64,000 bases of DNA from an uncultured virus (IMG/VR IMGVR_UViG_2061766007_000905) (Duplodnaviria; Heunggongvirae; Uroviricota; Caudoviricetes), in the IMG/VR virus record IMGVR_UViG_2061766007_000905. One strand, written 5' to 3'. Position 1 is the stretch's first letter. Each line of letters starts with the position of its first letter. Made by a program: the position numbers and the translations under genes. Shown piece after piece: positions 59 through 38,914 of the stretch. The notes under the pieces were generated by a model. The model searched no databases. It had not been told where the DNA came from and saw only the letters and a list, made by a program, of their open reading frames with translations.

Positions 59-97
59 AAAAAGAAATCCTGTAAGTTTCAAAGGTCTTACAGGATT
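59..97 (-). terminator. Attenuator terminator immediately 5' of tRNA-Asn
   Basis: AATCCTGTAAG-10nt-CTTACAGGATT then TCTTTTT. Confidence 0.85.
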
Positions 98-130
98 CAG
101 TTTAAAAATTCATCTAGTTATGAAACAAAA

Positions 131-196
131 CTAATCCTGTAGCACCTCAGGGTTATTATTAGGGTTGGTATTATTTGTGTTCATAACGAAAGTCAT
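131..196 (-). CDS. Asn-rich leader peptide MTFVMNTNNTNPNNNPEVLQD
   Basis: 21 aa, 7 Asn; 3' end TACAGGATT complementary to terminator 5' arm. Confidence 0.8.
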   Translation of the reverse strand: MTFVMNTNNTNPNNNPEVLQD

Positions 197-254
197 TTTT
201 ATTTTCTCACTGTTTTATTTATGTTTTTGTTTTTGTCTTTTTTGTTAAACTTTA

Positions 255-341
255 GGCGAGAAGTAATACTAAGGATTTGAACCTTATCCCTTCTTATCCG
301 AAGATAATACTAGGATAACCAAAATAGGAACTTCATATGCC
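255..341 (-). ncRNA. GTTCCTAT-helix ncRNA copy with UUCG hairpin and T-arm cargo
   Basis: GGC ATA TGAAGT TCCTAT ... TAAGG TTCAAAT CCTTA ... TT ACTTCT C GCC. Confidence 0.7.
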
Positions 342-348
342 AATTTAA

Positions 349-463
349 GCGGAAAGGCTGGACTCGAACCAACAACCCAAAGTTCCCCATTAATAGGAAC
401 AACCTTTGCGTGTAGCGGGTAGTAAAAATATTACTTTTGCTCTACCATTGAGCTACTTTCCGC
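349..463 (-). ncRNA. tRNA body whose anticodon loop is replaced by a permuted GTTCCTAT helix
   Basis: GCGGAAA/TTTCCGC acceptor, D and T arms; insert TTACTACCCGC TACAC GCAAAGGTTGTTCCTAT. Confidence 0.7.
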
Positions 464-474
464 ATGTAAATTTT

Positions 475-591
475 ATAGCGGGTAGTAACTTCTGGTAAGC
501 GTAACTGGACTCGAACCAACAACCTCCGACCATAAGGCCGACGCTCCGCCAATTGAGCTACACGCTTGGTGATAGGAACTACCTATGCTAT
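475..591 (-). ncRNA. GTTCCTAT-helix ncRNA enclosing a tRNA mimic with a shortened anticodon loop
   Basis: TAGC ATA GGTAGT TCCTAT [AAGCGTG...TACGCTT ACCA] TT ACTACC C GCTA. Confidence 0.75.
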
Positions 592-595
592 TTTA

Positions 596-671
596 TCTCC
601 CCTCTTGGATTTGAACCAAGGTTATTTCTGTTTGTAAGACAGATGCCATAAACCAGCTAGGCGAAGGAGAG
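596..671 (-). tRNA. tRNA-Val(TAC)
   Basis: cloverleaf, TCTGT CT TAC AA ACAGA. Confidence 0.85.
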
Positions 672-759
672 TTATGACCACTTTGTACAGTCATAGGTCG
701 TGGTCAATCCCTATGTAACGGCCTACTTTTTACTTCCCGTAGGCTGGCTTTTAAAAGTT

Positions 760-820
760 CGGCGGGAAGTAAACTTTGATAACCCATTCATCTTTATAAA
801 AATAGGAACTTCCTATGCCG
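760..820 (-). ncRNA. Minimal GTTCCTAT-helix ncRNA copy
   Basis: CGGC ATA GGAAGT TCCTAT ... TT ACTTCC C GCCG. Confidence 0.7.
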
Positions 821-931
821 TAAATTCAAAGAGGTGCGACTCTAATGGCTCCAGTCCGGAATGAAACCTGTTTAGCTAACCCAGATTTCAAACGATGTTC
901 GCCGAACATCTTCTCACCGTATTTCTTAACC

Positions 932-1002
932 CGCTGACGGAGGAATCGAACCCCGACTGCTTCATTTGCAACTTCCACAGCTTTTAAAGAAGAAGCGCCA
1001 GC
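932..1002 (-). pseudogene. Degenerate tRNA-like element
   Basis: GCTGGCG/CGTCAGC acceptor and GGGG TTCGATT CCTC T arm; no proper D arm. Confidence 0.4.
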
Positions 1003-1064
1003 TTATCGAACATAATAGAGTTTGCAACCACTATCATATCCTATCTTCACATCCCGGAAACTAG

Positions 1065-1111
1065 TAGCGGGTCCTGGACTCGAACCAGGGACTTCAAGGT
1101 TATGAGCCTTG
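1065..1111 (-). tRNA. tRNA-Met(CAT), initiator-like, 5' half in N gap
   Basis: CAAGG CT CAT AA CCTTG AAGTC CCTGG TTCGAGT CCAGG ACCCGCT A. Confidence 0.8.
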
Positions 1112-1278
1112 NNNNNNNNNNNNNNNNNNNNNNNNNNNNNNNNNNNNNNNNNNNNNNNNNNNNNNNNNNNNNNNNNNNNNTTTCTTGGAAACAAGTCGTC
1201 ATGTTCAATCCTTTCTAGTACGGCATGATATAAAGATGCAGGGAAACAAAACATCTATAAAAAGTTTGCGGTAGGCCA

Positions 1279-1351
1279 CAGGGTGTAGGCTAGTTGGTCA
1301 GTCACATGATTTGGGGTCATGGTCACGCAGGTTCGAATCCTGTCACCCTGA
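1279..1351 (+). tRNA. tRNA-Pro(TGG)
   Basis: CAGGGTG/CACCCTG, CATGA TT TGG GG TCATG. Confidence 0.9.
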
Positions 1352-1388
1352 TAGCAACCGAGCACACTACCAAATTTATAAATATGTT

Positions 1389-2042
1389 ATGGAAGAATAT
1401 ATTTGTAAATTTTGTAGGAAACCTTGTAAAAATTTGAATTCTTTACGTAATCATGAAAGACTATGTAAAAAGAATCCAAATAGACAAGAATCGTCATTTG
1501 TTAAATATAATGCAGAGCGTGAAACTGTATGGAATAAAGGTCTTACAAAAGAAACGGATGCAAGAGTTAAACAAATGGCAGAAACAATGAGTCGTGAAAT
1601 ACAAGCTGGTATAATTCATAATTATGACCATCAAAAAGTATGGACCGATGAATTACGTAAACGTCAATCTGAACAGAAAAAGGAATATTATAAAACACAT
1701 CCAGATAAACATCCAAATGTATTAGTTGCTGGAACTCTTGGAAAAATGACATATCCAGAAAAACTAACAGCCGAATATTTATCAGAACATAATATTGAGG
1801 CAAAACATAATTGGTATTTTAAAACAGATAAATTTACTAGATATATAGATTTTTACATTGAAAAATATAAATTGTTTATTGAAGTTGATGGCGAATATTG
1901 GCATAAAGATAAAGAAAAAGATATTAATAAAGATAAAGATGCATTAGCTAATGGTTATATCACATTAAGATTAAATCCAAAAACGGTTATAATACAATTA
2001 GAAGAATATTTTAAAAATATAAGTGCACAGGAGACACACTAG
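1389..2042 (+). CDS. Free-standing homing endonuclease, Zn-finger + Vsr/DUF559-like nuclease
   Basis: CxxC..HxxxC, WNKGLTKET, IDFYI..IEVDGEYWH; start moved to ATG 1389 after TATAAATA. Confidence 0.8.
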   Translation: MEEYICKFCRKPCKNLNSLRNHERLCKKNPNRQESSFVKYNAERETVWNKGLTKETDARVKQMAETMSREIQAGIIHNYDHQKVWTDELRKRQSEQKKEYYKTHPDKHPNVLVAGTLGKMTYPEKLTAEYLSEHNIEAKHNWYFKTDKFTRYIDFYIEKYKLFIEVDGEYWHKDKEKDINKDKDALANGYITLRLNPKTVIIQLEEYFKNISAQETH

Positions 2043-2104
2043 CTTCGGGAGCTAGAGAAGTTATATCCAGACGGAGGTCGGATAGATGGTGGAATTGTGA
2101 TAAT

Positions 2105-2177
2105 CAGAATGTAGCTCAGCTGGCAGAGCGCACCGTTCGGGGCGGTGAGGTCGGAGGATCATAACCTCTCATTCTGA
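2105..2177 (+). tRNA. tRNA-Pro(CGG), non-canonical T loop ATCATAA
   Basis: CAGAATG/CATTCTG, CACCG TT CGG GG CGGTG. Confidence 0.85.
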
Positions 2178-2185
2178 CGAAAAAT

Positions 2186-2241
2186 CGGCATAGGTCGTTC
2201 CTATTTAGCTCAAGTTAGAGCGTTTGATTGCTAATCAAAAG
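2186..2241 (+). ncRNA. GTTCCTAT-helix ncRNA copy with D arm and GCT anticodon arm, truncated by gap
   Basis: CGGC ATA GGTCGT TCCTAT TTA GCTC AAGTTA GAGC G TTTGA TT GCT AA TCAAA. Confidence 0.6.
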
Positions 2242-2251
2242 NNNNNNNNNN

Positions 2252-2383
2252 CAAAAGCTACTGTTACTGGAGGTCTTTGATTATACCAGCTCTTACTGTA
2301 ACTGATCTTACGTGTTACACCCGGTTTAGCACTATAAAGAGTCTGCAGCTTCTAAATAACGCCTAACAGTATTAGTTTTTTTC
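2252..2383 (-). ncRNA. Putative rod-like ncRNA with its own promoter
   Basis: promoter TTGACA-N17-TATATT at ~2391-2419 (-); nested stems TACTGTTA/TAACAGTA, CTCTT/AAGAG, TGTAAC/GTTACA. Confidence 0.4.
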
Positions 2384-2421
2384 GTTGACAAATATAATAA
2401 TTTTTATTCTATTTGTCAACC

Positions 2422-3078
2422 CTAATTATAAATCTTTTCACACACTTTATCTAACCAGTCATCCCCATATTTTTCAGTCATATAATTTATTTCTTTTGAA
2501 ACATCTTTAATGACTACTAGGTTATTTACTGATTGATATTTTGCTTGACATTTCTCATCTTCATAACCTTTAATTTCTATATAGTTACTACCGTCGAAAA
2601 AATCTGGCAAATATCTATGTGTTTTATTTTGGTATTCATAAAGAAATTCTTTAGTATTACGCTCTAGCTTATTACCGTTTTCTTTATTATAAAACCAATA
2701 TGCTACTTCCCAAGAACTATCAAAAAAGATTCCGTCTGCTATACATTTTTTACCATGACCAGATTTATGAATTCTATGACCACCTACATTTTTACCTTCA
2801 GCTTTAGCTTTATGTATTCCTTCAATTAGCTTCTGCTTATGTTCTTCAGTCATTGGACCATGCAAAACTCCTAATTTTGTTTTTGCTTGTTTTTCTGCTT
2901 GATTTTTAACAATATTAGATGTCTCTTTTGTTAATCCTTTATTCCAAGCAGTATGTCCAATTGTATGTGATACATAGTTTCTATCCGGATTATGCGGACA
3001 TAATCTTTCATGATTTCTATGTGAATTCGCATTTTTACAAGTTTTCTGACACCATTTACAAATATAACATATTTCCAT
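2422..3078 (-). CDS. Free-standing homing endonuclease, Zn-finger + PD-(D/E)XK nuclease
   Basis: same N-terminus as 1389 ORF; FDSSWE..YLPDF..IEIKGY. Confidence 0.8.
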   Translation of the reverse strand: MEICYICKWCQKTCKNANSHRNHERLCPHNPDRNYVSHTIGHTAWNKGLTKETSNIVKNQAEKQAKTKLGVLHGPMTEEHKQKLIEGIHKAKAEGKNVGGHRIHKSGHGKKCIADGIFFDSSWEVAYWFYNKENGNKLERNTKEFLYEYQNKTHRYLPDFFDGSNYIEIKGYEDEKCQAKYQSVNNLVVIKDVSKEINYMTEKYGDDWLDKVCEKIYN

Positions 3079-3121
3079 ATCATATTTATAATTTGGTAGA
3101 GCAGTTAACTTGATTTTTTAG

Positions 3122-3202
3122 AGCCGGAGAGAGGATTCGAACCTCCGTAGCTTGCGCGCTTGATTACAAATCAAGTCCTATTAACCACTCAGGCACTCCG
3201 GC
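3122..3202 (-). tRNA. tRNA-Thr(TGT) with extended variable region
   Basis: GCCGGAG/CTCCGGC, CTTGA TT TGT AA TCAAG CGCGCAAGCT. Confidence 0.85.
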
Positions 3203-3505
3203 AAAATGTAATTATGTTTGTCAAACTTAATTCGTTAGTTCATGTAAGCGATAGATCTTATAAATCGCATAATACACTCGCTAACAAATAATTCGCTTCA
3301 ATTACAAAGCGTTACGTTATTTCCGTACTTTCATAACCAGGTAACGAACCTCCTGCGCCCAAGTTTCATAGATTTCTCTATACACCGCGTTGGAACTCAT
3401 GTTTCCTTTTGGACAACTGGCGGAATATTTCCAGAGTTTTACTTTCGGAACAAGTAAGTAAGCAACTTGGAGGGTCACATTGCTATCGGCCCACAGGGTG
3501 ATTTC

Positions 3506-3579
3506 TCGGAGTAGCGAGATTCGGACTCACGGCCTCCTGATCCCAAATCAGGCGCTCCACCAGGCTGAGCTATACTCCG
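3506..3579 (-). tRNA. tRNA-Pro(TGG)
   Basis: CGGAGTA/TACTCCG, CCTGA TT TGG GA TCAGG. Confidence 0.9.
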
Positions 3580-3784
3580 CAAGTTTTTTAGGTGGTTCCG
3601 CCACCACTGGACTACCAGCATAACGTTTATTAAACTCAGCAAAGCAGTTAACGTTGTTCGCTATGTCTTTCGAATTTTAGCTACATTAACCGGTTGGCGC
3701 CACAAGTTTGGTGATCAACTCCAATGAGGGCACGTTGACGTTGGTGTTAACGCTTTGCTTATCTTGCAAGATAGAAATTTTTAG

Positions 3785-3897
3785 TAGGCCGGCGTCGGAT
3801 CGAACGACCCCTAGTTTCTCCACCTAAACTCCATGTTTTCTCGCGACCTAGCATGAAGGTTTGTTAGTGTTCTGTTACCCATTTGAACTATGGCCCA
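3785..3897 (-). ncRNA. tRNA-like RNA with ~55-nt insert replacing anticodon arm
   Basis: GGGCCA TA GTTC..GAAC D arm, GTCG TTCGATC CGAC T arm, CTTCATG/CATGGAG insert stem. Confidence 0.5.
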
Positions 3898-3905
3898 TAT
3901 TTTAG

Positions 3906-3988
3906 TCGCAGAGGATGGATTCGAACCATCGCGTGCTTTCGCATCGGGATTATGAGCCCCGTGACATCGTCCACTAGTCGACCCTGCA
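3906..3988 (-). tRNA. tRNA-Met(CAT) with long variable arm
   Basis: CGGGG CT CAT AA TCCCG A TGC GAAA GCA CGC GATGG TTCGAAT CCATC. Confidence 0.8.
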
Positions 3989-4017
3989 TCAAAATTTAAG
4001 ACTAATATAGTCTTTAG

Positions 4018-4332
4018 CTGTCCTTCCTGGACTCGAACCAGGGACCAAGCGATTCATACTACTATAACTTTCGTTACCAAGCATCCTCATGGGTGTTAAG
4101 CCCCCCACCGCACAAATTGGACACTCGTTTTGTAGTCCGGGCTTTGTCTTTACCATATTCTTTCGAACTTAGGTACTTCGTGTAAAGTCTCTACACACGG
4201 ATTATTTCTAATCCTTGCTCGGCGTTGCCATTTTACAGGTTTCACCGACTTAGCGAAGTTTGCATCTATACGTTTCCATACAGAGAATCTATTTTAAACA
4301 GTCGCTCGCTCTACCAACTGAGCTAAAGGACA
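4018..4332 (-). tRNA. tRNA-Asn(GTT) interrupted by an intron
   Basis: exons 4332-4297 and 4054-4018 join to AGCGA CT GTT AA TCGCT; TGTCCTT/AAGGACA acceptor. Confidence 0.9.
4055..4296 (-). mobile_element. Group I self-splicing intron (242 nt) after anticodon position 36
   Basis: 5' exon ends in U, intron ends in G; core-like segments GTCGGTGAAACC, GGCAACGCCGAGCAAG, GTAGAGACT, AAGACAAAGCCCG. Confidence 0.8.
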
Positions 4333-4344
4333 AAAAGGAGAATT

Positions 4345-4378
4345 AAAAAATCCTGTTGAGCTTGTCTCATACAGGATT
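4345..4378 (-). terminator. Attenuator terminator upstream of Asn/Met/Pro/Thr tRNA cluster
   Basis: AATCCTGT(A)TGAG acaag CTCA ACAGGATT TTTT. Confidence 0.8.
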
Positions 4379-4404
4379 CAAATGAAATCATGTAATGAAA
4401 CAAA

Positions 4405-4467
4405 CTAATCGAAAGTTACCTTTGGATTATTGACTGGTGTCATGTTTGTTGTTATTACTAATTGCAT
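4405..4467 (-). CDS. Leader peptide MQLVITTNMTPVNNPKVTFD
   Basis: RBS GAGGA; same layout as 131-196 leader (GAT TAG ttt gtttcat). Confidence 0.75.
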   Translation of the reverse strand: MQLVITTNMTPVNNPKVTFD

Positions 4468-4757
4468 TTTTATCCTCGTTTTATATTATATATAACGATA
4501 ATTTTTTAATTTTCGTTTTTTCGTTGATTTAAATATAGTAATTTATTTTTATTTTGTAAACCCTATTTTTAAAGTGATCTTGAAGGAATACCGATTCGTC
4601 ACCTTCATATAGACCCAGACTCTGGAAGGAATATCCAGACTCAACCCGTTACCACCGTGTCTATTTCATTTTATTGATCGTCTAGCAGACACTTTCTTTC
4701 AATCAACGTTATATAATATAGAATTTTTATTGTGTTTTGTAAACCCTAAAAATTTTT

Positions 4758-4988
4758 TTACTGAACATTAGTCAATTGAAGCGTAGTATCAGCTACCTGA
4801 AGATTTTCCGGCAAACGGACGACCAAGTTCTTTGAATAATCAACCGGAATCGGATTTGCCATATAGACATTAATTCCTTCAATCGTATTTACCTTTTTAA
4901 GTTCCTTATACGAAACCGTAGAATAGGTAACGCCGGCGATTGCAATGACAGAAGCGACCGCAAACGTAATCTTAAGATATTGCTTCAT
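4758..4988 (-). CDS. Small membrane-anchored hypothetical protein
   Basis: own promoter and RBS; N-terminal hydrophobic helix. Confidence 0.6.
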   Translation of the reverse strand: MKQYLKITFAVASVIAIAGVTYSTVSYKELKKVNTIEGINVYMANPIPVDYSKNLVVRLPENLQVADTTLQLTNVQ

Positions 4989-5097
4989 TTTGACTTCCTT
5001 TGTTTTATTTGTTTTAACGATGTTAATATAATAAATTATTCTCGTCTTGTAAACCCCTTAACTAATATAAATAATATATAAAATTTAAGGAGAAACT

Positions 5098-5406
5098 ATG
5101 AATTTAAAAGAAGCAAAAGAACAATTAGAGAAAAATGGCTATAAAATTCAAAAATTGAATGAATGTGGCAGCAGTGGTTGCGGCGGCGGAAGTGATGATT
5201 ATTCTACAGTATCAACCACAGCGCGTAAATCTCGATATAGCACATTAGAAAAACATCCATATTCCTTGCTTACCGCATTATGCAACATATATGATAAATT
5301 TGATGCATTATCAAATGATAACAAACACAAAGTGCTTAGAAAATGCTTGAATTTCTTAGATAATGATGATTTATTAGATTTTGAAAAATGGCTTAATACT
5401 CTTTAA
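5098..5406 (+). CDS. Late protein with putative capsid-targeting leader and CGSSGCG motif
   Basis: TATAAATA at 5066, AAGGAG RBS, MNLKEAKEQLEKNGY..LNE-CGSSGCGGGSDDY. Confidence 0.7.
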   Translation: MNLKEAKEQLEKNGYKIQKLNECGSSGCGGGSDDYSTVSTTARKSRYSTLEKHPYSLLTALCNIYDKFDALSNDNKHKVLRKCLNFLDNDDLLDFEKWLNTL

Positions 5407-5455
5407 ATTAAAAACTGGACTAAAAATCCAGTTTTTAAATTCTTTTAATTTCACA

Positions 5456-5653
5456 TTAACCACAACTACTATAATGGCCGCAATAATCTCTTACAACTCT
5501 GCCACAGCCAATATAGACAGTTCTCGGTTCTGAGCCGCAACCAGTATACATTGTTCTTCCGCAACCAATATAAACATAATCATCAGAAGAACCGCAAAGA
5601 TTAAATTGCGGGATTTGACTATGTTTCATTTTAATATTTTTCAATAAAATCAT
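5456..5653 (-). CDS. Cys-rich YxGCG-repeat peptide, putative RiPP precursor
   Basis: six CG motifs (YIGCG, YTGCG, YIGCG, DYCG, YSSCG, LCG); starts 2 nt after radical SAM stop. Confidence 0.7.
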   Translation of the reverse strand: MILLKNIKMKHSQIPQFNLCGSSDDYVYIGCGRTMYTGCGSEPRTVYIGCGRVVRDYCGHYSSCG

Positions 5654-5655
5654 TT

Positions 5656-6537
5656 TTATCCTTCAATATGATCTTCTAATTTTTCACCGTTCTTTTCAAG
5701 CAGCCATTTAATAAATTCTACATCATTTGCATATTCAGAAACATCATCGTCTAATATATATTCACCGAATACCCATCTTTCAAATTCACTGTCTTGAACG
5801 AAATCCCAATCATCATAAATCATTCCGTCAATAGTAATAAGAACATCATTTACATATCGTCTATTACCATACTTGACAAGAGAATGTTCTATTCCTCTAT
5901 GATAGCTAATTTTAAAGTCATCGTTATAAAATTGGTCATCGTTACAGACCATACAACCGCCAGAAACAGTGTAATCATATTTCATGATTAACTTTTCAAA
6001 TACTTCATCACGGTTCTTAAGATTGTCCTTAGTAATATTTCTATAATCAGCTCTAATACAGATATCAAGATTTTTCATACCTTTTAACGGCTGAATAAAT
6101 GCGTCAAATACATCTACATCAAAAGTTTCAGATAATACGACGTTCAATTTAATGAATTTCGTAATCTTCTTGAAATCTTCCATTGGCAAAATCGGTTCAT
6201 AAAATTTCTGGTGCATATGACGAGAGATATTGACACGCGCAATCTTGCTATTGTTTACGAAATCAATTCTTTTCTGAACATCGCCTTCCAATGGGAATGT
6301 AGTATTAACGAAGCATGGTTTCTCCATAGCATCGAGTAATATCTGACACTTTTCAATATCAGCTAACGGTTCACCGCCAGTTAATACAAATTCAGTGATT
6401 AATGGATTCTGATTAATCTTTTTAATCTGTGCTAGAATAGCATCCATATCACATGTTCTTTCTTTATACATGTGTTTGGATGTACAAAATTTACAATGGT
6501 TATGACAATCCCATGGAACAAAAATTGTGCAGCTAAG
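5656..6537 (-). CDS. Radical SAM enzyme (5' end in gap)
   Basis: in-frame extension LSCTIFVPWDCHNHCKFCTSK gives CxxxCxxC; FVLTGGEPL; extra CMVC. Confidence 0.9.
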   Translation of the reverse strand, partial: LSCTIFVPWDCHNHCKFCTSKHMYKERTCDMDAILAQIKKINQNPLITEFVLTGGEPLADIEKCQILLDAMEKPCFVNTTFPLEGDVQKRIDFVNNSKIARVNISRHMHQKFYEPILPMEDFKKITKFIKLNVVLSETFDVDVFDAFIQPLKGMKNLDICIRADYRNITKDNLKNRDEVFEKLIMKYDYTVSGGCMVCNDDQFYNDDFKISYHRGIEHSLVKYGNRRYVNDVLITIDGMIYDDWDFVQDSEFERWVFGEYILDDDVSEYANDVEFIKWLLEKNGEKLEDHIEG

Positions 6538-6586
6538 NNNNNNNNNNAAGACTGGTTGGATTCCAGTTGGATCCTTAAGAAATCAT

Positions 6587-6659
6587 GGTTCTATCGTCTA
6601 GAGGCCCAGGACAGTCGGTTCTCAGCCGTCTTACTTCAGTTCGAATCTGAATAGAACTA
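6587..6659 (+). tRNA. tRNA-Glu(CTC)
   Basis: GGTTCTA/TAGAACT, GTCGG TT CTC AG CCGTC. Confidence 0.85.
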
Positions 6660-6683
6660 CTATTCCATTAAAGGAAGTATTAT

Positions 6684-7010
6684 ATGATAACAGTGACACA
6701 AATCAACGATTTAAGAAAAGAAACCCAGGTAAGTATGCTTCTCTGTAAGCAAGCTCTTGAAGCAACAGGCGGTGATTTTGATGCAGCAAAAAAGTGGCTT
6801 CGTGAACAAGGTAAAGAAGTTACTGGTGATTCATCAGTTTTTGGTTATACCGTAATTGAGAATGCAATAGTATCAAATCAAGGTTCAGATAATAAATTTA
6901 TCTATTCTGACGGACATACATGTATAGATATTCGTGGATTTGGCGGTTTTTCTCCATATACTGTTTGGGGAAATACAAATACTCAGCTGATTTTAAATCC
7001 GGTAAAATAA
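6684..7010 (+). CDS. EF-Ts N-terminal (UBA-like) domain protein
   Basis: INDLRKETQVSMLLCKQALEATGGDFDAAKKWLREQG resembles EF-Ts N-terminus. Confidence 0.8.
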   Translation: MITVTQINDLRKETQVSMLLCKQALEATGGDFDAAKKWLREQGKEVTGDSSVFGYTVIENAIVSNQGSDNKFIYSDGHTCIDIRGFGGFSPYTVWGNTNTQLILNPVK

Positions 7011-7061
7011 TAAAAAGGATTGACTGATGTCAATCCTTATTTAATATATGCTTTATAATTA

Positions 7062-7508
7062 TTATAGAGCTTCTACATCATTAGTAACCATTTCGCGAAT
7101 ACGACGCAAAGAACCTTCTTCGTCATCTTCGTCATAAAATTCAAGTCCAGTTTCGCCAGAATATTCTATCAATGGATTTTCAATAAGAGTAATCAATTCT
7201 TTAACATATGGTGTATCGGCAATATCTATCTTTCCGATTTCTTTAAAATGTTTAGCTGTACTATCGTCTACTTCTATTACACCGCAAAACCAAATATCAT
7301 CTGGGCCAGCTTCAAACCAATCGGTTATCGCATTAATAATATCTTGTTTATTTTGTGATACTGCATAAATATATGCTGTTTCCGGGTTATTATGCGCACG
7401 GTCGCCATAAATGCTATAACATACGAAATTACGGTTTCCGGCTGCATCTTCTTTAATTAGCTTATAGCCAGCTGATTTAAGAGTTTTTAAAGCTTCAGTT
7501 AGATTCAT
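7062..7508 (-). CDS. Late protein with putative capsid-targeting leader
   Basis: TATAAATA at 7533-7540; MNLTEALKTLKSAGYKLIKE. Confidence 0.65.
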   Translation of the reverse strand: MNLTEALKTLKSAGYKLIKEDAAGNRNFVCYSIYGDRAHNNPETAYIYAVSQNKQDIINAITDWFEAGPDDIWFCGVIEVDDSTAKHFKEIGKIDIADTPYVKELITLIENPLIEYSGETGLEFYDEDDEEGSLRRIREMVTNDVEAL

Positions 7509-7629
7509 TTAATATTCTCCTTATATTTTATATATTTATAAAAATCATTTATATCAAATAAAAAATTTATTTTAGGGGTTTACAAAAGGAAAAAACTTTA
7601 CTATATTTAACAACGTTAAAACACAAGAG

Positions 7630-7749
7630 AACAGCAAAAGCGGTTCCTATCATTAATAGAGTAGCTTAATAGGTAGAGCAACCACTAGTTAATGTGGGAG
7701 GTTATTGGTTCGACTCCAATTTCTATTGCCATTATTACTGCTCGCTGTT
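7630..7749 (+). ncRNA. GTTCCTAT-helix ncRNA enclosing tRNA mimic (8-nt anticodon loop, encoded CCA)
   Basis: AACAGC AAA AGCGGT TCCTAT [AATAGAG..TTCTATT GCCA] TT ACTGCT C GCTGTT. Confidence 0.75.
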
Positions 7750-7803
7750 TATTTTGCGAAAAACAGGAAAATTAAAACATATATAATATAAAGGTTAAGA
7801 AAA

Positions 7804-7851
7804 ATGACTAAGTTTGTAGTTGACACTCATGATTGCAAGACTCGCCGCGAC
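7804..7851 (+). CDS. Leader peptide MTKFVVDTHDCKTRRD (variant copy, truncated by gap)
   Basis: identical to 23866 leader. Confidence 0.65.
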
Positions 7852-7884
7852 NNNNNNNNNNGCTTCTACCTTTAATAAATCTCA

Positions 7885-8178
7885 TTAATTTGCTTCCTTA
7901 CCAAATTCTTTTAAAATCTCATTTAATGTGTTCTGAAAAGCCAATTCACGACCTGGTTCCGGTTTTTTACCGAATATAGCTTCATAATCATGGAATGCTC
8001 CACAATCAGGATCATAATTGGTATCTTCTTCAAGAGTAAACTTATAACCCTGGTTTCCAAGACGTTGTACTAGCTTAGCATAAGCTTTTGACATTTTAGA
8101 CAGATTAGTCCCACAATAAATTGTGCAATTTGCATCAAAATGATTTTTTACTGCAATATAATAATGACGTATATTCAT
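7885..8178 (-). CDS. Hypothetical protein, related to 36397 ORF
   Basis: shared EDxNYDPDCG motif. Confidence 0.6.
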   Translation of the reverse strand: MNIRHYYIAVKNHFDANCTIYCGTNLSKMSKAYAKLVQRLGNQGYKFTLEEDTNYDPDCGAFHDYEAIFGKKPEPGRELAFQNTLNEILKEFGKEAN

Positions 8179-10233: not shown

Positions 10234-10737
10234 CTATCTCTTAAATCTATCTAAAATCATGTTTGACACATTAGCCGGTATAAATAACGATTTTTCACCA
10301 AGTCGTTCAAATTTGCCGTACTTAATGCATTCTTTTACAAATGTCGAACTAATGGCTGGAAATCTGCTGAACAATACGACTTCCTCCATATCATACTTAA
10401 GATTTGTATAATATTGATTCAATACATATTCATCTTCCATGTCTTTGGAATTACGAACGCCTCTGACTAATGTCTGAATATTATACTTGTCCATTACATC
10501 TGTCGTCATTTGGTCAGTAACACTGATGATTGAGACATTGCCAATTCCTTGAAATCTTATTGCCTCTTGAACCATCTTATAACGTTCGGGTTCGGTAAAC
10601 AAATAATTCTTTGCAGAATTAGTAGAAATGCCTACATAAAGTATGTCGAATAACTTTGCTGCTCTCTTAATAATATCCATATGACCGACAGTAAGCGGGT
10701 CAAATGAGCCGACATATAATCCGTTTGTTCTTGACAT
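10234..10737 (-). CDS. coaD: Phosphopantetheine adenylyltransferase
   Basis: YVGSFDPLTVGHMDII, VRGVRN..D, ISSTFVKE; start after AAGGAG. Confidence 0.85.
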   Translation of the reverse strand: MSRTNGLYVGSFDPLTVGHMDIIKRAAKLFDILYVGISTNSAKNYLFTEPERYKMVQEAIRFQGIGNVSIISVTDQMTTDVMDKYNIQTLVRGVRNSKDMEDEYVLNQYYTNLKYDMEEVVLFSRFPAISSTFVKECIKYGKFERLGEKSLFIPANVSNMILDRFKR

Positions 10738-10963
10738 GTTATTCTCCTTGTTTTGGCTCAGCGGTACTTCCGCCCCTAATAGTAAATTCGCCATTCTTGT
10801 CGATTTTATAACGGTGAGGTCGTTTTTCAGCATCCCAAACTTCGATATAAACCGTAGAATCTTGTGGCACTGGTTCTTTTTCTTTCTTTCTTCCCATAAT
10901 TTAAATATAGTAAAAAATAACCGTCTTGTCAACGGTTATTTTTACATTTAATACAGCTAGTTA

Positions 10964-23865: not shown

Positions 23866-23939
23866 ATGACTAAGTTTGTAGTTGACACTCATGATTGCAA
23901 GACTCGCCGCGACNNNNNNNNNNATCATCTAGTTTTTAA
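23866..23939 (+). CDS. Leader peptide MTKFVVDTHDCKTRRD.. (gap inside; end uncertain)
   Basis: AAAGGA RBS; followed by terminator and tRNA-Asp. Confidence 0.7.
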
Positions 23940-23957: not shown

Positions 23958-23988
23958 GATTCCTGTGCAACTCACAGGAATCTTTTTT
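23958..23988 (+). terminator. Attenuator terminator 5 nt before tRNA-Asp
   Basis: GATTCCTGTG caact CACAGGAATC TTTTTT. Confidence 0.85.
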
Positions 23989-23993
23989 AATTT

Positions 23994-24064
23994 GGTCTCA
24001 TCGTTTAATGGATGGACACTAGCCTGTCACGCTAGAGGTACGGGATCGTGACCCGTTGAGACCG
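23994..24064 (+). tRNA. tRNA-Asp(GTC), T loop ATCGTGA
   Basis: CTAGC CT GTC AC GCTAG. Confidence 0.9.
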
Positions 24065-24122
24065 TTAAATCTGTCTAATTATATTTAACAGGTTCGGAAA
24101 ACAAAAAATTATATATAATATA

Positions 24123-24912: not shown

Positions 24913-24979
24913 CTAAAAATATGCGGTGGGAGTTTTACTAATTTCTCGTGTCCGACACCGGGAAGATAANNNNNNNNNN

Positions 24980-25063
24980 TCGACATAGACACAGGGTCAT
25001 TTAGTATTAACTATATAAAGAGTTTATAAAAATGATTCCTGTGTAAAAACAGGAATCTTTTTT
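24980..25063 (+). promoter_or_regulatory. Variant Asp attenuator (leader 3' end, antiterminator, terminator)
   Basis: GAC ATA GAC ACA GGG TCA; ACACAGGGTCAT can pair ATGATTCCTGTGT; GATTCCTGT/ACAGGAATC T6. Confidence 0.75.
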
Positions 25064-25068
25064 ATTTT

Positions 25069-25139
25069 GGTCTCATCGTTTAATGGATGGACACTAGCCT
25101 GTCACGCTAGAGGTACGGGATCGTGACCCGTTGAGACCG
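25069..25139 (+). tRNA. tRNA-Asp(GTC)
   Basis: identical to 23994 copy. Confidence 0.9.
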
Positions 25140-25142
25140 CTA

Positions 25143-25201
25143 AATAGCATATGAAGTTCCTATTTTTGGACTGCAAATCTAGTATTTTACTTCTCGCTAT
25201 T
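25143..25201 (+). ncRNA. GTTCCTAT-helix ncRNA presenting an isolated Cys(GCA) anticodon stem-loop
   Basis: AATAGC ATA TGAAGT TCCTAT..TTGGA CT GCA AA TCTAG..TT ACTTCT C GCTATT. Confidence 0.7.
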
Positions 25202-25206
25202 AATTT

Positions 25207-25281
25207 GGTCGCGTCGGATAGTGGTCCATTCCACCTGACTGTCTCTCAGGCTTTTCGTGGGTTCGAATCCCACCGTGATCG
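25207..25281 (+). tRNA. tRNA-Asp(GTC)
   Basis: CCTGA CT GTC TC TCAGG. Confidence 0.85.
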
Positions 25282-25288
25282 CTAATAT

Positions 25289-25368
25289 ACACCAGTAGCC
25301 GAGCAAGACTACGAATCTTGTAATCGTAATTGGAGCTGAAAATGCAGGTTCGATCCCTGTCTGGTGTA
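25289..25368 (+). tRNA. Rearranged tRNA-Arg(ACG)-like RNA, second copy
   Basis: ACACCAG TAGCCGAG CAAGA CT ACG AA TCTTG TAATCG TAATTGGA GCTG AAAAT T-arm CTGGTGT A. Confidence 0.65.
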
Positions 25369-25389
25369 CTAAAGAAAATTTACATTTAT

Positions 25390-25462
25390 GCCTCAGTGGC
25401 GCAATTGGTAGCGCAGCTGACTCTTAATCAGTGGGTTGAAGGTTCGAGTCCTTCCTGGGGTA
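25390..25462 (+). tRNA. tRNA-Lys(CTT)
   Basis: GCTGA CT CTT AA TCAGT. Confidence 0.9.
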
Positions 25463-25470
25463 CGAAAATT

Positions 25471-25542
25471 GGGAGTATATGTCAATGGCTAGACGAGCAG
25501 ACTCTTAATCTGTGGATCCGGGTTCGAATCCCGGTACTCCCA
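25471..25542 (+). tRNA. tRNA-Lys(CTT)
   Basis: GCAGA CT CTT AA TCTGT. Confidence 0.9.
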
Positions 25543-25625
25543 TAATAACTAGCCTTCTGTTTTTGACAAGCGCAGATGGGTTTACGAAGGCCGGTAGATG
25601 TAACCGTTGGCGCAACATCATTTAT

Positions 25626-25698
25626 GCGGTAGTAGCACAACTGGTAGTGCGATTCCTTGCCATGGAATAGGTTGTGGGTTCAAGTCCCATCTACCGCT
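25626..25698 (+). tRNA. tRNA-Gly(GCC)
   Basis: ATTCC TT GCC AT GGAAT. Confidence 0.9.
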
Positions 25699-25707
25699 CT
25701 AAAATAT

Positions 25708-25778
25708 GCGTCTATGTTGTAGTGGTAGCAAACGACCTTGCCATGGTTGAAGCTCCGGTTCGAACCCGGATAGACGCT
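25708..25778 (+). tRNA. tRNA-Gly(GCC)
   Basis: CGACC TT GCC AT GGTTG. Confidence 0.9.
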
Positions 25779-25786
25779 CTAAATTA

Positions 25787-25860
25787 TCCCAGATGTAGTG
25801 TAACGGTTGCACGACAGCGTGTGAGGCTGTTAGATTGTGTTCGACTCACAACTTGTGGAC
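25787..25860 (+). tRNA. tRNA-His(GTG)-like, irregular acceptor stem
   Basis: ACAGC GT GTG AG GCTGT; TCCCAGATG/CTTGTGGA. Confidence 0.7.
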
Positions 25861-25868
25861 TAAATTAT

Positions 25869-25943
25869 GCGGCTATAACATAGTCAGGTTTAATGTGCTA
25901 GACTTCCACTCTGGAAACGTGAGTTCGAATCTCACTAGCCGCT
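25869..25943 (+). tRNA. tRNA-Gly(TCC)
   Basis: CTAGA CT TCC AC TCTGG. Confidence 0.9.
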
Positions 25944-25952
25944 TAAAATTTT

Positions 25953-26024
25953 GGGCTTATATTTCAAATGGCAGAAAACTGGACTCTTAATCCTGGAATT
26001 CCGGATCGTGGCCGGATGAGCCCA
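25953..26024 (+). tRNA. tRNA-Lys(CTT), T loop ATCGTGG
   Basis: GGGCTTA/TGAGCCC, CT CTT AA. Confidence 0.8.
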
Positions 26025-26070
26025 TATTTATATAGTGCAATAAACTCTAGAGTAAAAATATAAATATATT

Positions 26071-27027: not shown

Positions 27028-27058
27028 CATTTGTCGACCTTTTTCTATATTATAAAAT

Positions 27059-27355: not shown

Positions 27356-27409
27356 ACTAAAATAAAAAGGGTTGACATTTGTCAACTCTTTTATTATATT
27401 AATGGTTAA

Positions 27410-28420: not shown

Positions 28421-29140
28421 ATGAAATTTGGATTAATCGGAAGTAATATCGGATATAGCAAGTCGAAAGAAATTTTCGAATCTAAAGGTATCGAATATCA
28501 TGTTTATGATGTTCCGTATGTCGAACAAGGACTTGAACAGGCTATAGCTGATAAGCTGGACGGTTTCAACGTAACGAAGCCGTTTAAGAAAGATATTGTC
28601 AGATACATGGATTCATTGATGCCTGAAGCACAACGTATCGGGACAGTGAACTGTGTTAAAATCCTGAACGATTGTTTTATCGGCGAAAACTTCGATGGCG
28701 AAGCATTCCGGATTTCTTTGGATCATTATGTAGACAATCATGACGATTGGGAATTCGATTATCCGCATCGTATGGCTATTCTTGGAAATGGCGGGGTAGT
28801 TCCGGCTATTCTTACTGCTCTTCATGACGCCACCGATTTGGCTATTTCCAGTCATGAAATGACAGTATTCGCCCGTAATCCAAAGGGAGATGAAAAAAGT
28901 ATTTCGGAATTCGATGCCAAGAAATTCGATCTTATCGNNNNNNNNNNTACTATTCCGTTCGAAGCCAGAATTGACATAAATTTCAATAATAAGAGCAAGT
29001 TCATCTATTATGACCTGAACTATGCGGACAGGACGCTTGTCGAAAAGGCTGAAAAGAATAAACACTGTTCCTGGTCGCTTGACGGGATGGATATGCTCGA
29101 ACGTCAGGCAGAAATGGCCCTAAACTGGTGGAAAGAATAA
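28421..29140 (+). CDS. aroE: Shikimate dehydrogenase-like protein
   Basis: YSKS, GFNVTKPFK, GTVNC, ENFDG, ILGNGG, YDLNY, GMDML..QA. Confidence 0.8.
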   Translation: MKFGLIGSNIGYSKSKEIFESKGIEYHVYDVPYVEQGLEQAIADKLDGFNVTKPFKKDIVRYMDSLMPEAQRIGTVNCVKILNDCFIGENFDGEAFRISLDHYVDNHDDWEFDYPHRMAILGNGGVVPAILTALHDATDLAISSHEMTVFARNPKGDEKSISEFDAKKFDLIXXXXTIPFEARIDINFNNKSKFIYYDLNYADRTLVEKAEKNKHCSWSLDGMDMLERQAEMALNWWKE

Positions 29141-29905: not shown

Positions 29906-29968
29906 TATAAACAAATATTTACAATAAAAAGGCTGACGCAGGTCAGTCTTTTTTCTATCTTTAGATTT

Positions 29969-32974: not shown

Positions 32975-33056
32975 TATCAAGGACATGTAAATAAAAATAC
33001 CCATTGACAATATGGGTATTTTTTATTATATTATAGCCATAAACAAGAGGACTAAG

Positions 33057-35525: not shown

Positions 35526-36317
35526 TTATTCTTCTATGAATTCACCATTAAATTCGTGCTTGAAGAAATCTTCTCCATAGTCACGAATCATCTTTTTCTT
35601 CCATTTGGTATCACGTCCCTTCGTGCAGTTCCAAGGAATTTCGATAGCATTAAACGAATTCAGGTTCATCTTTGCCTTGGCGTAAAGCATACAGAACGGA
35701 TGATTAGTTGTAGTCGGCGTAGAACCGATAATCATCTGAGCTCGCATACGTGAAGCCTGAGTAGGAAATACTGACATCATAAAATCATCGGTTTCTCGAC
35801 CGCCCATGTGTGCGAAATCGTCAATCAGCAAAAGGTCTACTGTTTTACCCCTTACGCTTGACGACGAAGCAGCACATGCGAAAATCTGAGTATTGTTTTC
35901 GAATCTAATACAGCTATTGTTATTGGTTTTAGTTTTTGGACGTAAGAATTCAGGAAGATGCTCGTACATATCTCGAACTCGAAATAGGATTTCAGTCGCC
36001 TGCCCATTTTTCGGTGCCATGATACCGACACATTTTTCTGGATGGAATATTGCGAACCAGAGAGCATATACGGTCAGACCTGTAGTAAAACCAGATTGTC
36101 TTGTGTTTTTGACAATATAGTTTCGTTTGATACCAAAATCATCACTTTCGTAAGAATTTACGAAACCGTTGAGCATATCTTTCTGGAATTTACGTGGTTT
36201 GAATGATTCGTAGCCATTTTCAGATATAATCTGTGTATACTGATAAAACTTGTTTATGTCTTTTGCACATTCGGCGACGATTCTGGCTTCTTCGATAGTT
36301 AACTGTTTTTTAATCAT
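35526..36317 (-). CDS. Terminase large subunit ATPase-domain-only paralog, degenerate active site
   Basis: RQSGFTT (Walker A K lost), LIDDFAH, GSTP; ends at FKHEF; late promoter 36350-36357. Confidence 0.75.
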   Translation of the reverse strand: MIKKQLTIEEARIVAECAKDINKFYQYTQIISENGYESFKPRKFQKDMLNGFVNSYESDDFGIKRNYIVKNTRQSGFTTGLTVYALWFAIFHPEKCVGIMAPKNGQATEILFRVRDMYEHLPEFLRPKTKTNNNSCIRFENNTQIFACAASSSSVRGKTVDLLLIDDFAHMGGRETDDFMMSVFPTQASRMRAQMIIGSTPTTTNHPFCMLYAKAKMNLNSFNAIEIPWNCTKGRDTKWKKKMIRDYGEDFFKHEFNGEFIEE

Positions 36318-37529: not shown

Positions 37530-37966
37530 AATGCGTTGGTGACGCTAATATTTGGTATGCCGTAAACCAGGACAAATATGCAGAAACACTGGATTGGGAA
37601 TACAAATATGTCATCAAGTATAGACTTCCTGATAAATACGACCATAAGAAATTTTATCAAGAAATTAAGAATGTCCAGAAATATTATGGATATGCACAAC
37701 CATGCATACAGATGGTTCAGTTCAATGTTCATGACTGGATGTATTTTACCGATTATGAAATCGAAATACATTTCCGCGAATGGGGTTCTAACCGAAAATA
37801 CCGTAACTGGCCGACAACAATCCAAAATATTGAAGAAAGTATTCAGAGCTATATAAAGGCAATGGATGCTGAAATTACCGGACGTACGCTTTATGAAACG
37901 CCGTTAATGTATAATGATGTTTCTTACACTCTGGATTTGCCGCTCCAGAAAAAAATTCCTCAATAG
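37511..37966 (+). CDS. Hypothetical protein
   Basis: ORF in operon. Confidence 0.6.
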   Translation: MRNDDVKCVGDANIWYAVNQDKYAETLDWEYKYVIKYRLPDKYDHKKFYQEIKNVQKYYGYAQPCIQMVQFNVHDWMYFTDYEIEIHFREWGSNRKYRNWPTTIQNIEESIQSYIKAMDAEITGRTLYETPLMYNDVSYTLDLPLQKKIPQ

Positions 37967-38056
37967 GGGTTTACAAAAGAAAAATTATTTGCTATATTTA
38001 CAACGTAAAAACAAAAACACCAAAAAATTTTTTATATATAATAGAAAGGTTAAAAA

Positions 38057-38143
38057 ATGAAATTGCTTAGTTTGACACTCCTTCTACTCAGTAGCCTGCT
38101 CCTTAGCTGGTTATTGCGTCGTAGTCTAGTGGGAACTAAGTAG
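38057..38143 (+). CDS. Leu/Ser/Trp leader peptide MKLLSLTLLLLSSLLLSWLLRRSLVGTK
   Basis: AAAGGT RBS; 13 Leu using all six codons; Ser only AGT/AGC; GTGGGAACT antiterminator. Confidence 0.85.
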   Translation: MKLLSLTLLLLSSLLLSWLLRRSLVGTK

Positions 38144-38171
38144 TTCGATTGTTTAATCGTACGAGAGTTTA

Positions 38172-38205
38172 TAAGGTTCCCACAAGTTGGGAGCCTTAAT
38201 TTTTT
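38172..38205 (+). terminator. Attenuator terminator 4 nt before tRNA-Trp
   Basis: TAAGGTTCCCA caagt TGGGAGCCTTA A TTTTTT. Confidence 0.85.
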
Positions 38206-38209
38206 ATAT

Positions 38210-38283
38210 ATCTCGGTGGTGTAACGGTTTAAGCATGGCTGGCTCCAACCCAGCAGATTAGGGTTCGAATCCTTACCGGGGTG
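38210..38283 (+). tRNA. tRNA-Trp(CCA)
   Basis: GCTGG CT CCA AC CCAGC. Confidence 0.9.
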
Positions 38284-38289
38284 CTAAAA

Positions 38290-38373
38290 CGGCTTGTGGT
38301 GGAATGCAGACACAACTGACTTAAGATCAGTCGTTGGGGAGCCAGCGTGAGGGTTCAAGTCCCTCCAGGCCGA
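38290..38373 (+). tRNA. tRNA-Leu(TAA)
   Basis: ACTGA CT TAA GA TCAGT, long V arm. Confidence 0.9.
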
Positions 38374-38378
38374 TATAA

Positions 38379-38460
38379 CGGTATGTGATGGAATGTATAC
38401 ATGCGGGCTTGAGAGGTCCGTGCCCGAAAGGGATTGGGAGTGCGAGTCTCCCCGTACCGA
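38379..38460 (+). tRNA. tRNA-Leu(GAG)
   Basis: CGGGC TT GAG AG GTCCG. Confidence 0.9.
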
Positions 38461-38468
38461 TAAAATAA

Positions 38469-38525
38469 CGTCAGGTGGAGTAATTTTGGTAGCCTCGCGA
38501 GAATGAGAGTCTCGTGGTAGAAATA
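38469..38525 (+). tRNA. tRNA-Leu(GAG)-like, truncated by gap
   Basis: CGAGA AT GAG AG TCTCG. Confidence 0.6.
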
Positions 38526-38535
38526 NNNNNNNNNN

Positions 38536-38618
38536 CCTTAGGTGGTGGAATGGTATACACGGAAGTTTCAAAAACTTCTGCCCGAAAGGGCATGTGGGTT
38601 CGAGTCCCACCCTAAGGA
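38536..38618 (+). tRNA. tRNA-Leu(CAA)
   Basis: GAAGT TT CAA AA ACTTC. Confidence 0.9.
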
Positions 38619-38622
38619 TTAA

Positions 38623-38705
38623 CCCTGTGTGGCGGAATCGCAGACGCGTCGGACTTAGGATCCGATGATAGAAATATCGTCCGAGTTCAAGTCTCGGCAT
38701 AGGGA
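38623..38705 (+). tRNA. tRNA-Leu(TAG)
   Basis: TCGGA CT TAG GA TCCGA. Confidence 0.9.
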
Positions 38706-38718
38706 TAATAATTTTTAT

Positions 38719-38807
38719 CCGCTGGTGGTGGAATAGTTTATGGTAGACACAGAAGATTCAGACGCTTCCGCCTTAATGGCTTGTGGGTTCGACTCCCACC
38801 CAGCAGA
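38719..38807 (+). tRNA. tRNA-Leu(CAG), mismatched 31-39 pair
   Basis: GAAGA TT CAG AC GCTTC. Confidence 0.75.
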
Positions 38808-38825
38808 CTAAATATAGAGTATTAA

Positions 38826-38914
38826 CGAAGGTTGGCAGAATGGTAATTGCAGAAGTTTGCTAAACTTCCGAGGCTGTCAAAGGTCTCACACAGGTTCGAA
38901 CCCTGTACCTTCGG
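38826..38914 (+). tRNA. tRNA-Ser(GCT)
   Basis: GAAGT TT GCT AA ACTTC, long V arm, G73. Confidence 0.9.

Follow-up and report, generated by a model that had tools for sequence, protein, structure and literature searches.

Putative leader-peptide attenuators at the head of tRNA operons in a lineage of ~0.4-Mb phages

Results

Short reading frames and terminators in front of tRNA clusters

The window examined here, by which we mean the whole stretch of 64,000 nucleotides of IMG/VR record IMGVR_UViG_2061766007_000905 from an uncultured virus of the Caudoviricetes, carries clusters of transfer RNA (tRNA) genes, and this paper concerns four units that stand at the head of such clusters. Each unit consists of a promoter-like signal followed by an ATG-initiated open reading frame (ORF) of 20-33 codons, here called the leader, an intrinsic terminator and a tRNA gene (Table 1). 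All four had been reported in an initial annotation of the window, and re-inspection of the sequence found each of them in its place. The window is phage-like and AT-rich, with a G+C content of 36%. ARAGORN called 40 tRNAs in it (43 with introns allowed) and Rfam gave 38 tRNA matches; among the tRNAs lie homing-endonuclease genes, and the remainder comprises terminase-like nuclease fragments and mostly unknown ORFs.

Units 1 and 2 occupy the minus strand and units 3 and 4 the plus strand. Their start signals take the form of a sigma-70-type promoter-like site, an AT-rich -10-like box, or both, usually accompanied by a purine-rich ribosome-binding site; 5' of the unit 2 leader, for instance, we found TTTACA-17-TATATT, an AT-rich -10-like box and a GAGGA ribosome-binding site. 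The hairpin of every unit contains G+C and is followed by a T run, and the first tRNA begins 6-15 nt past it. A consensus scan of the window returned 38 terminator-like sites, as compared with 12.0 +/- 3.1 in shuffled sequence; it recovered the terminators of both plus-strand units as well as that at 25034. The cluster of unit 1 continues in the nearest record (G001) with Asn, Asn, Pro x4 and Thr. The first tRNA of unit 2 (4332->4017, minus strand) bears an insert of ~243 nt within its anticodon loop and was called as His by ARAGORN; examined by eye, the exon halves form a GTT loop, which identifies it as Asn.

Two further stretches, at 7804 and 24980, had been taken in the initial annotation for variants of the unit 3 leader. 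Leader sequence is indeed present at both, but the two are the 5' and 3' halves of one Asp-type leader, each bounded by a run of 10 N, and the half at 7804 is preceded by the same promoter and tRNA-like module as unit 3 (7579-7731). The full Asp-type leader, seen only in relatives, has 33 codons, among them 5 Asp, 5 Lys (all AAG), 4 His, 3 Gly and 5 Arg. The window holds 24 N runs in all, and because 20 of these are exactly 10 N long (e.g. 7852-7861, 20099-20108, 23914-23923, 24970-24979, 49761-49770) and several coincide with the start or end of repeated sequence, they look like scaffold gaps. The tRNA block at 25390-26025 is repeated in a different order at 49832-50423. The window thus probably consists of contigs linked by gap markers, and the contigs perhaps derive from more than one strain, possibly from two.

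The layout recurs in related phages

For comparison we used the relatives of the window in IMG/VR. The window and 12 related stretches together gave 219 tRNA calls, among which our scan for a strong hairpin with a T run no more than 16 nt upstream of a tRNA returned 19 cases, every one at the head of a cluster. An intact ATG-initiated ORF of 20-35 codons precedes the hairpin at 17 of these sites, the remaining two being the window copies that are interrupted by N runs, and in 17 of 17 intact units the stop codon of the leader falls 24-33 nt 5' of the hairpin. A purine-rich site lies 6-12 nt 5' of the leader start in all classes except Arg.

A search of IMG/VR with the terminator arms yielded 16 loci, 13 of which present the same succession of leader, hairpin and tRNA-Asp. 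Further pattern searches found a leader at 23 of 23 loci (13 Asp-type, 8 Glu-type and 2 Asn-type), a Trp-type leader at 15 of 36 loci, the other 21 being chance matches with no tRNA, and the Tyr-type leader frame at 10 of 11 loci, so that overall the units occur in at least 25 related IMG/VR contigs. Two of the relatives that carry them are large: G002 is a complete phage genome of 415,750 bp with terminal repeats, and G003 measures 411 kb. In the three stretches of G002 that were examined, 42 of the 51 tRNAs called by ARAGORN stand behind six leaders, whose clusters are Trp/Leu/Ser/Gln/Cys; Tyr/Met/Ser; Asp/Lys/Gly/His; Glu/Ala/Phe/Val; Asn/Pro/Thr; and Arg/Gln/Ile/Lys. G003 has in addition a Gln/Lys/Arg variant. 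A looser scan for an AT box followed by an ORF gave 16 distinct ORFs, of which two fall outside every class (one in L017 near Ser TGA, the other in L020 near an Ile tRNA); they have no adjacent terminator and were counted as chance.

The initial annotation had left room for the leader ORFs not to be conserved, and their open frames proved to be kept in the relatives. Judged by the way in which they vary, the leaders behave as coding sequences. The reading frame is retained in all distinct variants (Trp class, 8/8; Asp class, 10/10), the sole indel within an ORF is one of 3 nt, and indels of 1-3 nt occur directly past the stop. The position of the stop is constant while the stop codon itself switches among TAG, TGA and TAA, and third codon positions are the most variable (14 vs. 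9 and 9 in the Trp type, 12 vs. 5 and 6 in the Asp type). RNA-library contigs from two runs extend over the leader ORF (X2 record 3; X4 records 11 and 13), and one of them, X4 record 13, spans the terminator, keeping in mind that such contigs show neither ends nor levels and that DNA carry-over is possible.

Leader codons correspond to the tRNAs of their own cluster

The initial annotation had stated that leader codons match the anticodons downstream, and tests of enrichment, permutation and synonymous-codon choice were all positive. With the match scored by simple wobble rules and the long ORFs of the same phages serving as background, 9-20 of 19-34 leader codons are readable by the leader's own cluster, against a background share of 0.10-0.22, and the enrichment was found in 8 of 8 units tested (binomial P from 2e-13 to 3e-3). 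Pairing leaders with foreign clusters gave only 0-7 matches, homologous classes excepted, and in G002 the true pairing of the six leaders with the six clusters is the single best of 720 permutations. The correspondence extends to synonymous codons: 164 of 175 codons for cluster-served amino acids are readable by the cluster anticodons, whereas 142.4 would be expected from the phages' synonymous usage, and 0 of 100,000 simulations attained 164; this test comprised 12 units including same-class variants, which are not independent, and omitted oddly called tRNAs. Related phages therefore have a small ORF and a terminator 5' of their tRNA arrays, with a concordance of codon and anticodon above controls, as the initial annotation had proposed to look for.

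Individual cases illustrate this tuning. All five Ser codons of the window Trp-type leader are AGY and its cluster carries Ser(GCT); in the Tyr-type leader five of six are UCN and the cluster carries Ser(TGA) and Ser(AGA). Likewise, the Lys codon AAG is used ahead of Lys(CTT) and the Arg codon AGA ahead of Arg(TCT). Moreover, leader content tracks cluster content. The Trp-type leader in its G002 form contains two CAG and two Cys codons, which all other Trp-type leaders lack, and among Trp-type clusters only the G002 form has Gln(CTG) and Cys(GCA) tRNAs. In the G003 form it is the Tyr cluster that holds the Cys tRNA, and three Cys codons are present in its leader frame vs. none in the G002 Tyr leader. 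Two Glu-type leaders of widely divergent sequence are both rich in Glu, Ala and Phe, and the one with Val tRNAs in its cluster has three core Val codons, compared to one in the leader without them. Finally, the Arg-type leader contains ATA codons that had no match in the cluster, and these led to a 103-nt tRNA miscalled by ARAGORN, in which a TAT loop with a 27-nt insert was recognized by eye.

Complementarity between leader ends and terminators

The terminator hairpins fold at -11.5 to -19.3 kcal/mol. In seven of nine units the 3' end of the ORF pairs with the 5' arm of its own terminator, with only 0-11 of 1000 shuffles as good. In unit 1 the complementary segment comprises the last ORF codons (0/1000 shuffles), and in unit 4 it comprises bases 38129-38136. 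Given the 24-33 nt between stop codon and hairpin, the last ORF codons would be covered by a ribosome at the stop, and the hairpin would not. Across the eight variants of the Trp class the terminator pairing is kept in 97.7% of cells and the antiterminator pairing in 100%, and a change from C to U in the 5' arm has its counterpart, G to A, both in the 3' arm and in the ORF end, this being a single event. The Asp class is too uniform for covariation to tell more.

The influence of ribosome position was explored by folding with a 28-nt footprint masked, using equilibrium models of what is a kinetic process. In six of nine units the predicted probability of the terminator was <=0.2 for stalls at some ORF codons and >=0.9 with the ribosome at the stop, and in the Asn-type units the codons at which a stall switches the fold are the matched codons. 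With no ribosome on the RNA, the terminator probability was >=0.85 in eight of nine units. A co-transcriptional proxy, in which folding was considered before the 3' arm is made, gave the predicted pattern in six of nine units.

A demand-driven switch and the alternatives to it

Cumulatively, our findings make it quite likely that phage tRNA operons are gated here by transcription attenuators of the ribosome-mediated, leader-peptide kind, each unit forming one of them. Layout, conservation, codon match and complementarity are read in the sequence; from them we infer that the ORF is translated, that transcription ends at the hairpin or reads through it, and which way the switch works. Transcription would start at the sigma-70-type promoter, and the short ORF would be translated while RNA polymerase nears the terminator. 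If the matched codons are read quickly, the ribosome should reach the last codons or the stop and cover the stretch complementary to the 5' arm, whereupon the terminator would form and the tRNAs would not be made. If decodable tRNA is short, the ribosome would stall on the matched codons, leaving that stretch free to pair with the 5' arm as an antiterminator and allowing the polymerase to continue into the tRNA genes. Because the tRNA products would relieve the stall, each operon would be self-limiting and driven by the demand for its own isoacceptors.

Amino-acid starvation, which the initial annotation had named as a trigger, is unlikely to be a useful one, because extra tRNA does not cure a missing amino acid, and a shortage of decodable tRNA is more likely to be the signal. 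Such a shortage could stem from a mismatch with the host pool, from host shut-off or from tRNA-cleaving defences, the link to defence being one that we infer.

A number of observations weigh against this reading. The initial annotation had given all four window units a segment complementary to a terminator arm. Such complementarity of the ORF end holds in the seven units mentioned above but is not significant in window unit 2 (709/1000 shuffles as good) or in the G002 Arg unit (166/1000); in window unit 2 the segment immediately 3' of the stop pairs with the 5' arm instead. The own arm is the best partner in only four of nine rows, because the arms have a common core, and within-class covariation is weak, being matched by 55-69 of 500 shuffles for Trp and by 249-400 of 500 for Asp. 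In the folding models the Asp and Glu units switch only for stalls in the first 6-7 codons, three of nine units (G002 Trp, G002 Arg and G003 Gln) favour the terminator at equilibrium under all conditions, and the co-transcriptional proxy departs from prediction for the Glu and Gln units and for window unit 2. No ribosome-binding site is visible ahead of the Arg-class leader; the cluster has no tRNA for 30-60% of the leader codons, two CGT in the window Trp-class leader being an example; and nine of the 51 G002 tRNAs have no leader, one of them lying directly behind a promoter. The Tyr class, a seventh class present in relatives, has a promoter-like TTTACA-17-TATATT and ~110 nt between terminator and tRNA-Tyr, and in all three contigs with its G003-type form (L023 6300-6398, L093 and L096) codon 9 of the leader is an in-frame TAA; the frame behind this TAA still matches the tRNAs of the cluster, Cys included. 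Lastly, a close relative in culture was not found, the Trp unit matching only tRNA-Leu of Listeria phages at ~77%. A 397-aa window protein had no match, and a window phosphoesterase matched proteins of jumbo phages at <30% identity. The promoter-region pattern had no match among the genome contigs searched and hence gave no clue to the host.

The Tyr class also bears on the possibility, raised in the initial annotation, that the tRNAs are transcribed from promoters downstream of the terminators. In the four window units there is no space for a promoter in the 6-15 nt between hairpin and tRNA, so that the tRNAs must be reached through the terminator, but in the Tyr class a promoter-like site does occupy this place. 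Some 110 bases between that site and tRNA-Tyr are conserved (L017 of G002; L023 6460-6537), a 26-nt pattern from them retrieves 11 loci, and the stretch is probably a structured RNA. An alternative genetic code was considered and rejected, ORFs being long and dense under table 11 and no suppressor tRNA having been found; the 'Stop(tta)' call by ARAGORN in G003 has, by eye, a TTT loop and an insert in the D loop.

The hairpins might instead be constitutive leaky terminators or processing or stability hairpins, with the small ORFs translated but exerting no control and the codon match having some other origin, for example as a short test mRNA reporting, by its translation or decay, on the new tRNAs without transcriptional feedback. 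The three of nine units for which no folding switch is predicted, and the promoter-like site after the terminator in the Tyr class, would agree with this. However, the ORF 3' end is complementary to its own arm in seven of nine units, the three-way compensatory change preserves both pairings, and the distance from stop to hairpin is held at 24-33 nt; since a free-standing ORF needs neither the complementarity nor a fixed stop distance, we regard this explanation as unlikely. A switch of opposite polarity, in which efficient translation of the leader promotes readthrough through ribosome-polymerase coupling or by disrupting a terminator-favouring structure, appears distinctly improbable to us. 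The Glu unit behaves in this way in the co-transcriptional proxy, its 5' arm being sequestered to 0.8-0.9 when the ribosome stands at the last codons and to 0.6 before that, but a stop 24-33 nt before the hairpin is too distant for a terminating ribosome to melt it, the segment covered by a ribosome at the stop is the very one complementary to the 5' arm, and termination is predicted for that position in six of nine units. A third idea, that the ORFs are genes for small functional peptides (hydrophobic membrane peptides, for instance) that have terminators of their own and resemble the tRNA set by chance or composition, is hardly credible, for although the Trp-class peptide is Leu-rich and resembles a membrane helix, the true pairing is the best of 720, the match reaches the level of synonymous codons, two Glu-class leaders diverge in sequence yet retain their Glu/Ala/Phe content, and leader content follows the gain or relocation of tRNAs.

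Other features of the window and its relatives

Several tRNA-like genes with an Rfam tRNA score have a 4-nt GNRA-like, 6-nt or 8-nt loop in place of the anticodon loop and no readable anticodon. They were seen at 23726-23799, 7655-7731, 493-567 (minus strand) and 20452-20524 and also in other stretches, L005, L010 and L012 among them. In the window as in 13 relatives, the Asp-type leader always has one such gene between itself and the upstream promoter. Insert-bearing tRNAs are present in the window at 4017-4332 and 348-463 (both minus strand), in G002 (L018 6757-6995), in L019 (7587-7689 and 10987-11176) and in L020 (5796-5890). The inserts in anticodon loops measure ~243 nt and 42 nt, an Ile-like tRNA has one of 27 nt and a D loop one of 13 nt; that of the tRNA at 4332->4017 gave no match to Rfam group I introns at E values up to 1.

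A recurrent intergenic module consists of a hairpin with a TTGACA -35 box in its 5' arm and loop, with a T run and then a TATATT -10 box behind it; the whole is a terminator fused with the next promoter. Metabolic-looking ORFs lie amid the unknown genes (27880-28419, 10234-10932, 41912-42451, 42455-43363, 28421-29140 and 59143-59919) and include one with an HD_4 domain (ppGpp hydrolase family), two cytidylyltransferase-like, one dephospho-CoA-kinase-like and two with a shikimate dehydrogenase N domain. Two short ORFs on the minus strand, one of 263 aa (35526-36317) and one of 309 aa (60188-61117), are similar to large terminase families in the nuclease half only.

Table 1. Features of the leader-terminator-tRNA units and associated elements in the window
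Feature	Position	Strand	Description
Unit 1 leader ORF	196->131 (131..196)	-	21 codons and stop; 7 Asn, 3 Thr, 2 Pro after start codon; identical copy in L025
Unit 1 intrinsic terminator	56..98	-	12-bp stem 98->65, then T-rich run
Unit 1 tRNA, 5' part	1..55	-	anticodon GTT (Asn); runs off left end of window
Unit 2 leader ORF	4467->4405 (4405..4467)	-	20 codons and stop; 4 Thr, 3 Asn, 2 Pro, 1 Met after start codon
Unit 2 intrinsic terminator	4343..4379	-	hairpin 4379->4348 with 9-bp outer stem and inner stem; T run after
Unit 2 tRNA cluster	3121..4332	-	insert-bearing tRNA 4332->4017, CAT 3988->3905, Pro TGG 3579->3506, Thr TGT 3202->3121
Promoter-like TTTACA-17-TATATT upstream of unit 3 leader	23649-23677	+	
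tRNA-like element with 4-nt loop replacing anticodon loop	23726-23799	+	upstream of unit 3 leader
Unit 3 Asp-type leader ORF	23866..23932	+	interrupted by 10-N run 23914-23923
Unit 3 intrinsic terminator	23958..23988	+	hairpin 23958-23982; 10 nt 5' of tRNA-Asp 23993-24065
Second Asp-type leader copy, 5' half	7804..7851	+	identical to 23866-23913; ends at N run 7852-7861
Asp-type leader, 3' half	24980..25063	+	begins at N run 24970-24979; stop 25002-25004; terminator 25034-25057 and T run
tRNA cluster behind 25034 terminator	25069..26025	+	Asp, Asp, odd tRNA with ACG loop (25289-25368), Lys CTT x2, Gly GCC x2, His GTG, Gly TCC, Lys CTT
Unit 4 start signals	37970..38056	+	TTTACA-17-TATATT 37970-37998; AT-rich -10-like box 38033-38042; purine-rich ribosome-binding site
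Unit 4 leader ORF	38057..38143	+	28 codons and stop; 13 Leu, 5 Ser (all AGY), 1 Trp after start codon
Unit 4 intrinsic terminator	38172..38205	+	hairpin 38172-38198, 11-bp stem, -15.8 kcal/mol, T run
Unit 4 tRNA cluster	38210..38914	+	Trp CCA, Leu TAA, Leu GAG, Leu CAA, Leu TAG, Ser GCT
Hairpin/TTGACA module sites	21888-21913, 22324-22349, 27017-27044, 27365-27392, 29926-29953, 32993-33023, 45395-45413, 52441-52468, 53164-53189, 54426-54459, 55207-55230		

Discussion

Leader-peptide attenuators govern the trp, his, leu, thr, pheA and ilv operons of enterobacteria, and the phage units resemble them in having a promoter, a short ORF rich in regulatory codons, a segment at the ORF end that would compete with an intrinsic terminator, and the regulated genes directly after it. 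The multi-amino-acid leaders of thr and ilv, in particular, recall the mixed codon sets of the phage leaders. The phage units differ in that they would regulate tRNA genes and not biosynthetic enzymes, in that their match is at the isoacceptor (synonymous-codon) level with up to five or six amino acids per leader, and in that they are phage-borne, form at least seven paralogous classes with one per operon, and would have a product that acts directly back on the sensor. To our knowledge, in all described leader-peptide attenuators the regulated genes are those of amino-acid biosynthesis or of synthetases, unlike the genes directly behind the phage leaders, which are tRNA genes. The pheST leader (pheM) attenuator, which controls phenylalanyl-tRNA synthetase, shares with the phage units the application of leader-peptide attenuation to a gene of the translation apparatus, but it controls a synthetase, responds to a single amino acid and belongs to the host. 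A leader at the E. coli pheV (tRNA-Phe) gene was considered as a precedent and discarded, the K-12 upstream sequence containing a promoter only and no Phe-rich ORF.

T-box riboswitches bind tRNA directly and have no ORF. Like the switch proposed for the phage units, they respond to the condition of one particular tRNA by forming either a terminator or an antiterminator. No T-box or other riboswitch was found in the window at the Rfam gathering threshold (all 38 matches are tRNA), nor up to an E value of 1 in 1-8000. In phage T5, the tRNA region likewise has short ORFs and promoters among tRNA and homing-endonuclease genes; its small ORFs, however, abut the tRNAs, and no terminator is annotated or visible in the T5 record. 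When 12 of these ORFs were translated, 11 showed no enrichment for the amino acid of the neighbouring tRNA, and T5.070, in front of tRNA-Cys, has 6 Cys of 42 in a CxxC pattern. For want of a terminator, and of enrichment in 11 of 12, we do not consider the T5 ORFs to be the same device.

The initial annotation knew of no description of attenuation for phage tRNA arrays, and our full-text literature search, which largely misses subscription journals and may miss older work, likewise found none for tRNA genes in phages or bacteria. The mechanism itself is a known one; the regulated target, the tuning to isoacceptors and the feedback logic are new. We think it rather probable that in this ~0.4-Mb phage lineage most tRNA genes lie in separately gated operons, each with a multi-codon decoding sensor tuned to its own isoacceptors, so that supply is on demand and shuts itself off, and that these sensors also activate upon cleavage or depletion of host tRNAs and thereby constitute an automatic counter to tRNA-targeting defences.

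If this is true, it would be the first case that we have found of leader-peptide attenuation controlling tRNA genes, as well as a natural, modular sensor of the decoding capacity for chosen codons, and synthetic circuits meant to report tRNA availability could be built from units as compact as these. Odd tRNAs, too, are easier to annotate with the leaders at hand: it was from unmatched codons that the identity of one missed by the gene finder was predicted. In most discussions, phage tRNA genes figure as constitutive extras whose role is to adjust codon usage or to make up for host tRNAs lost during infection. The long-standing question of why phages carry the particular tRNAs they do becomes testable, for the leader would spell out the codons that are limiting to the phage, and the units described here suggest that the expression of phage tRNAs is regulated, codon by codon, by the very process that it serves.

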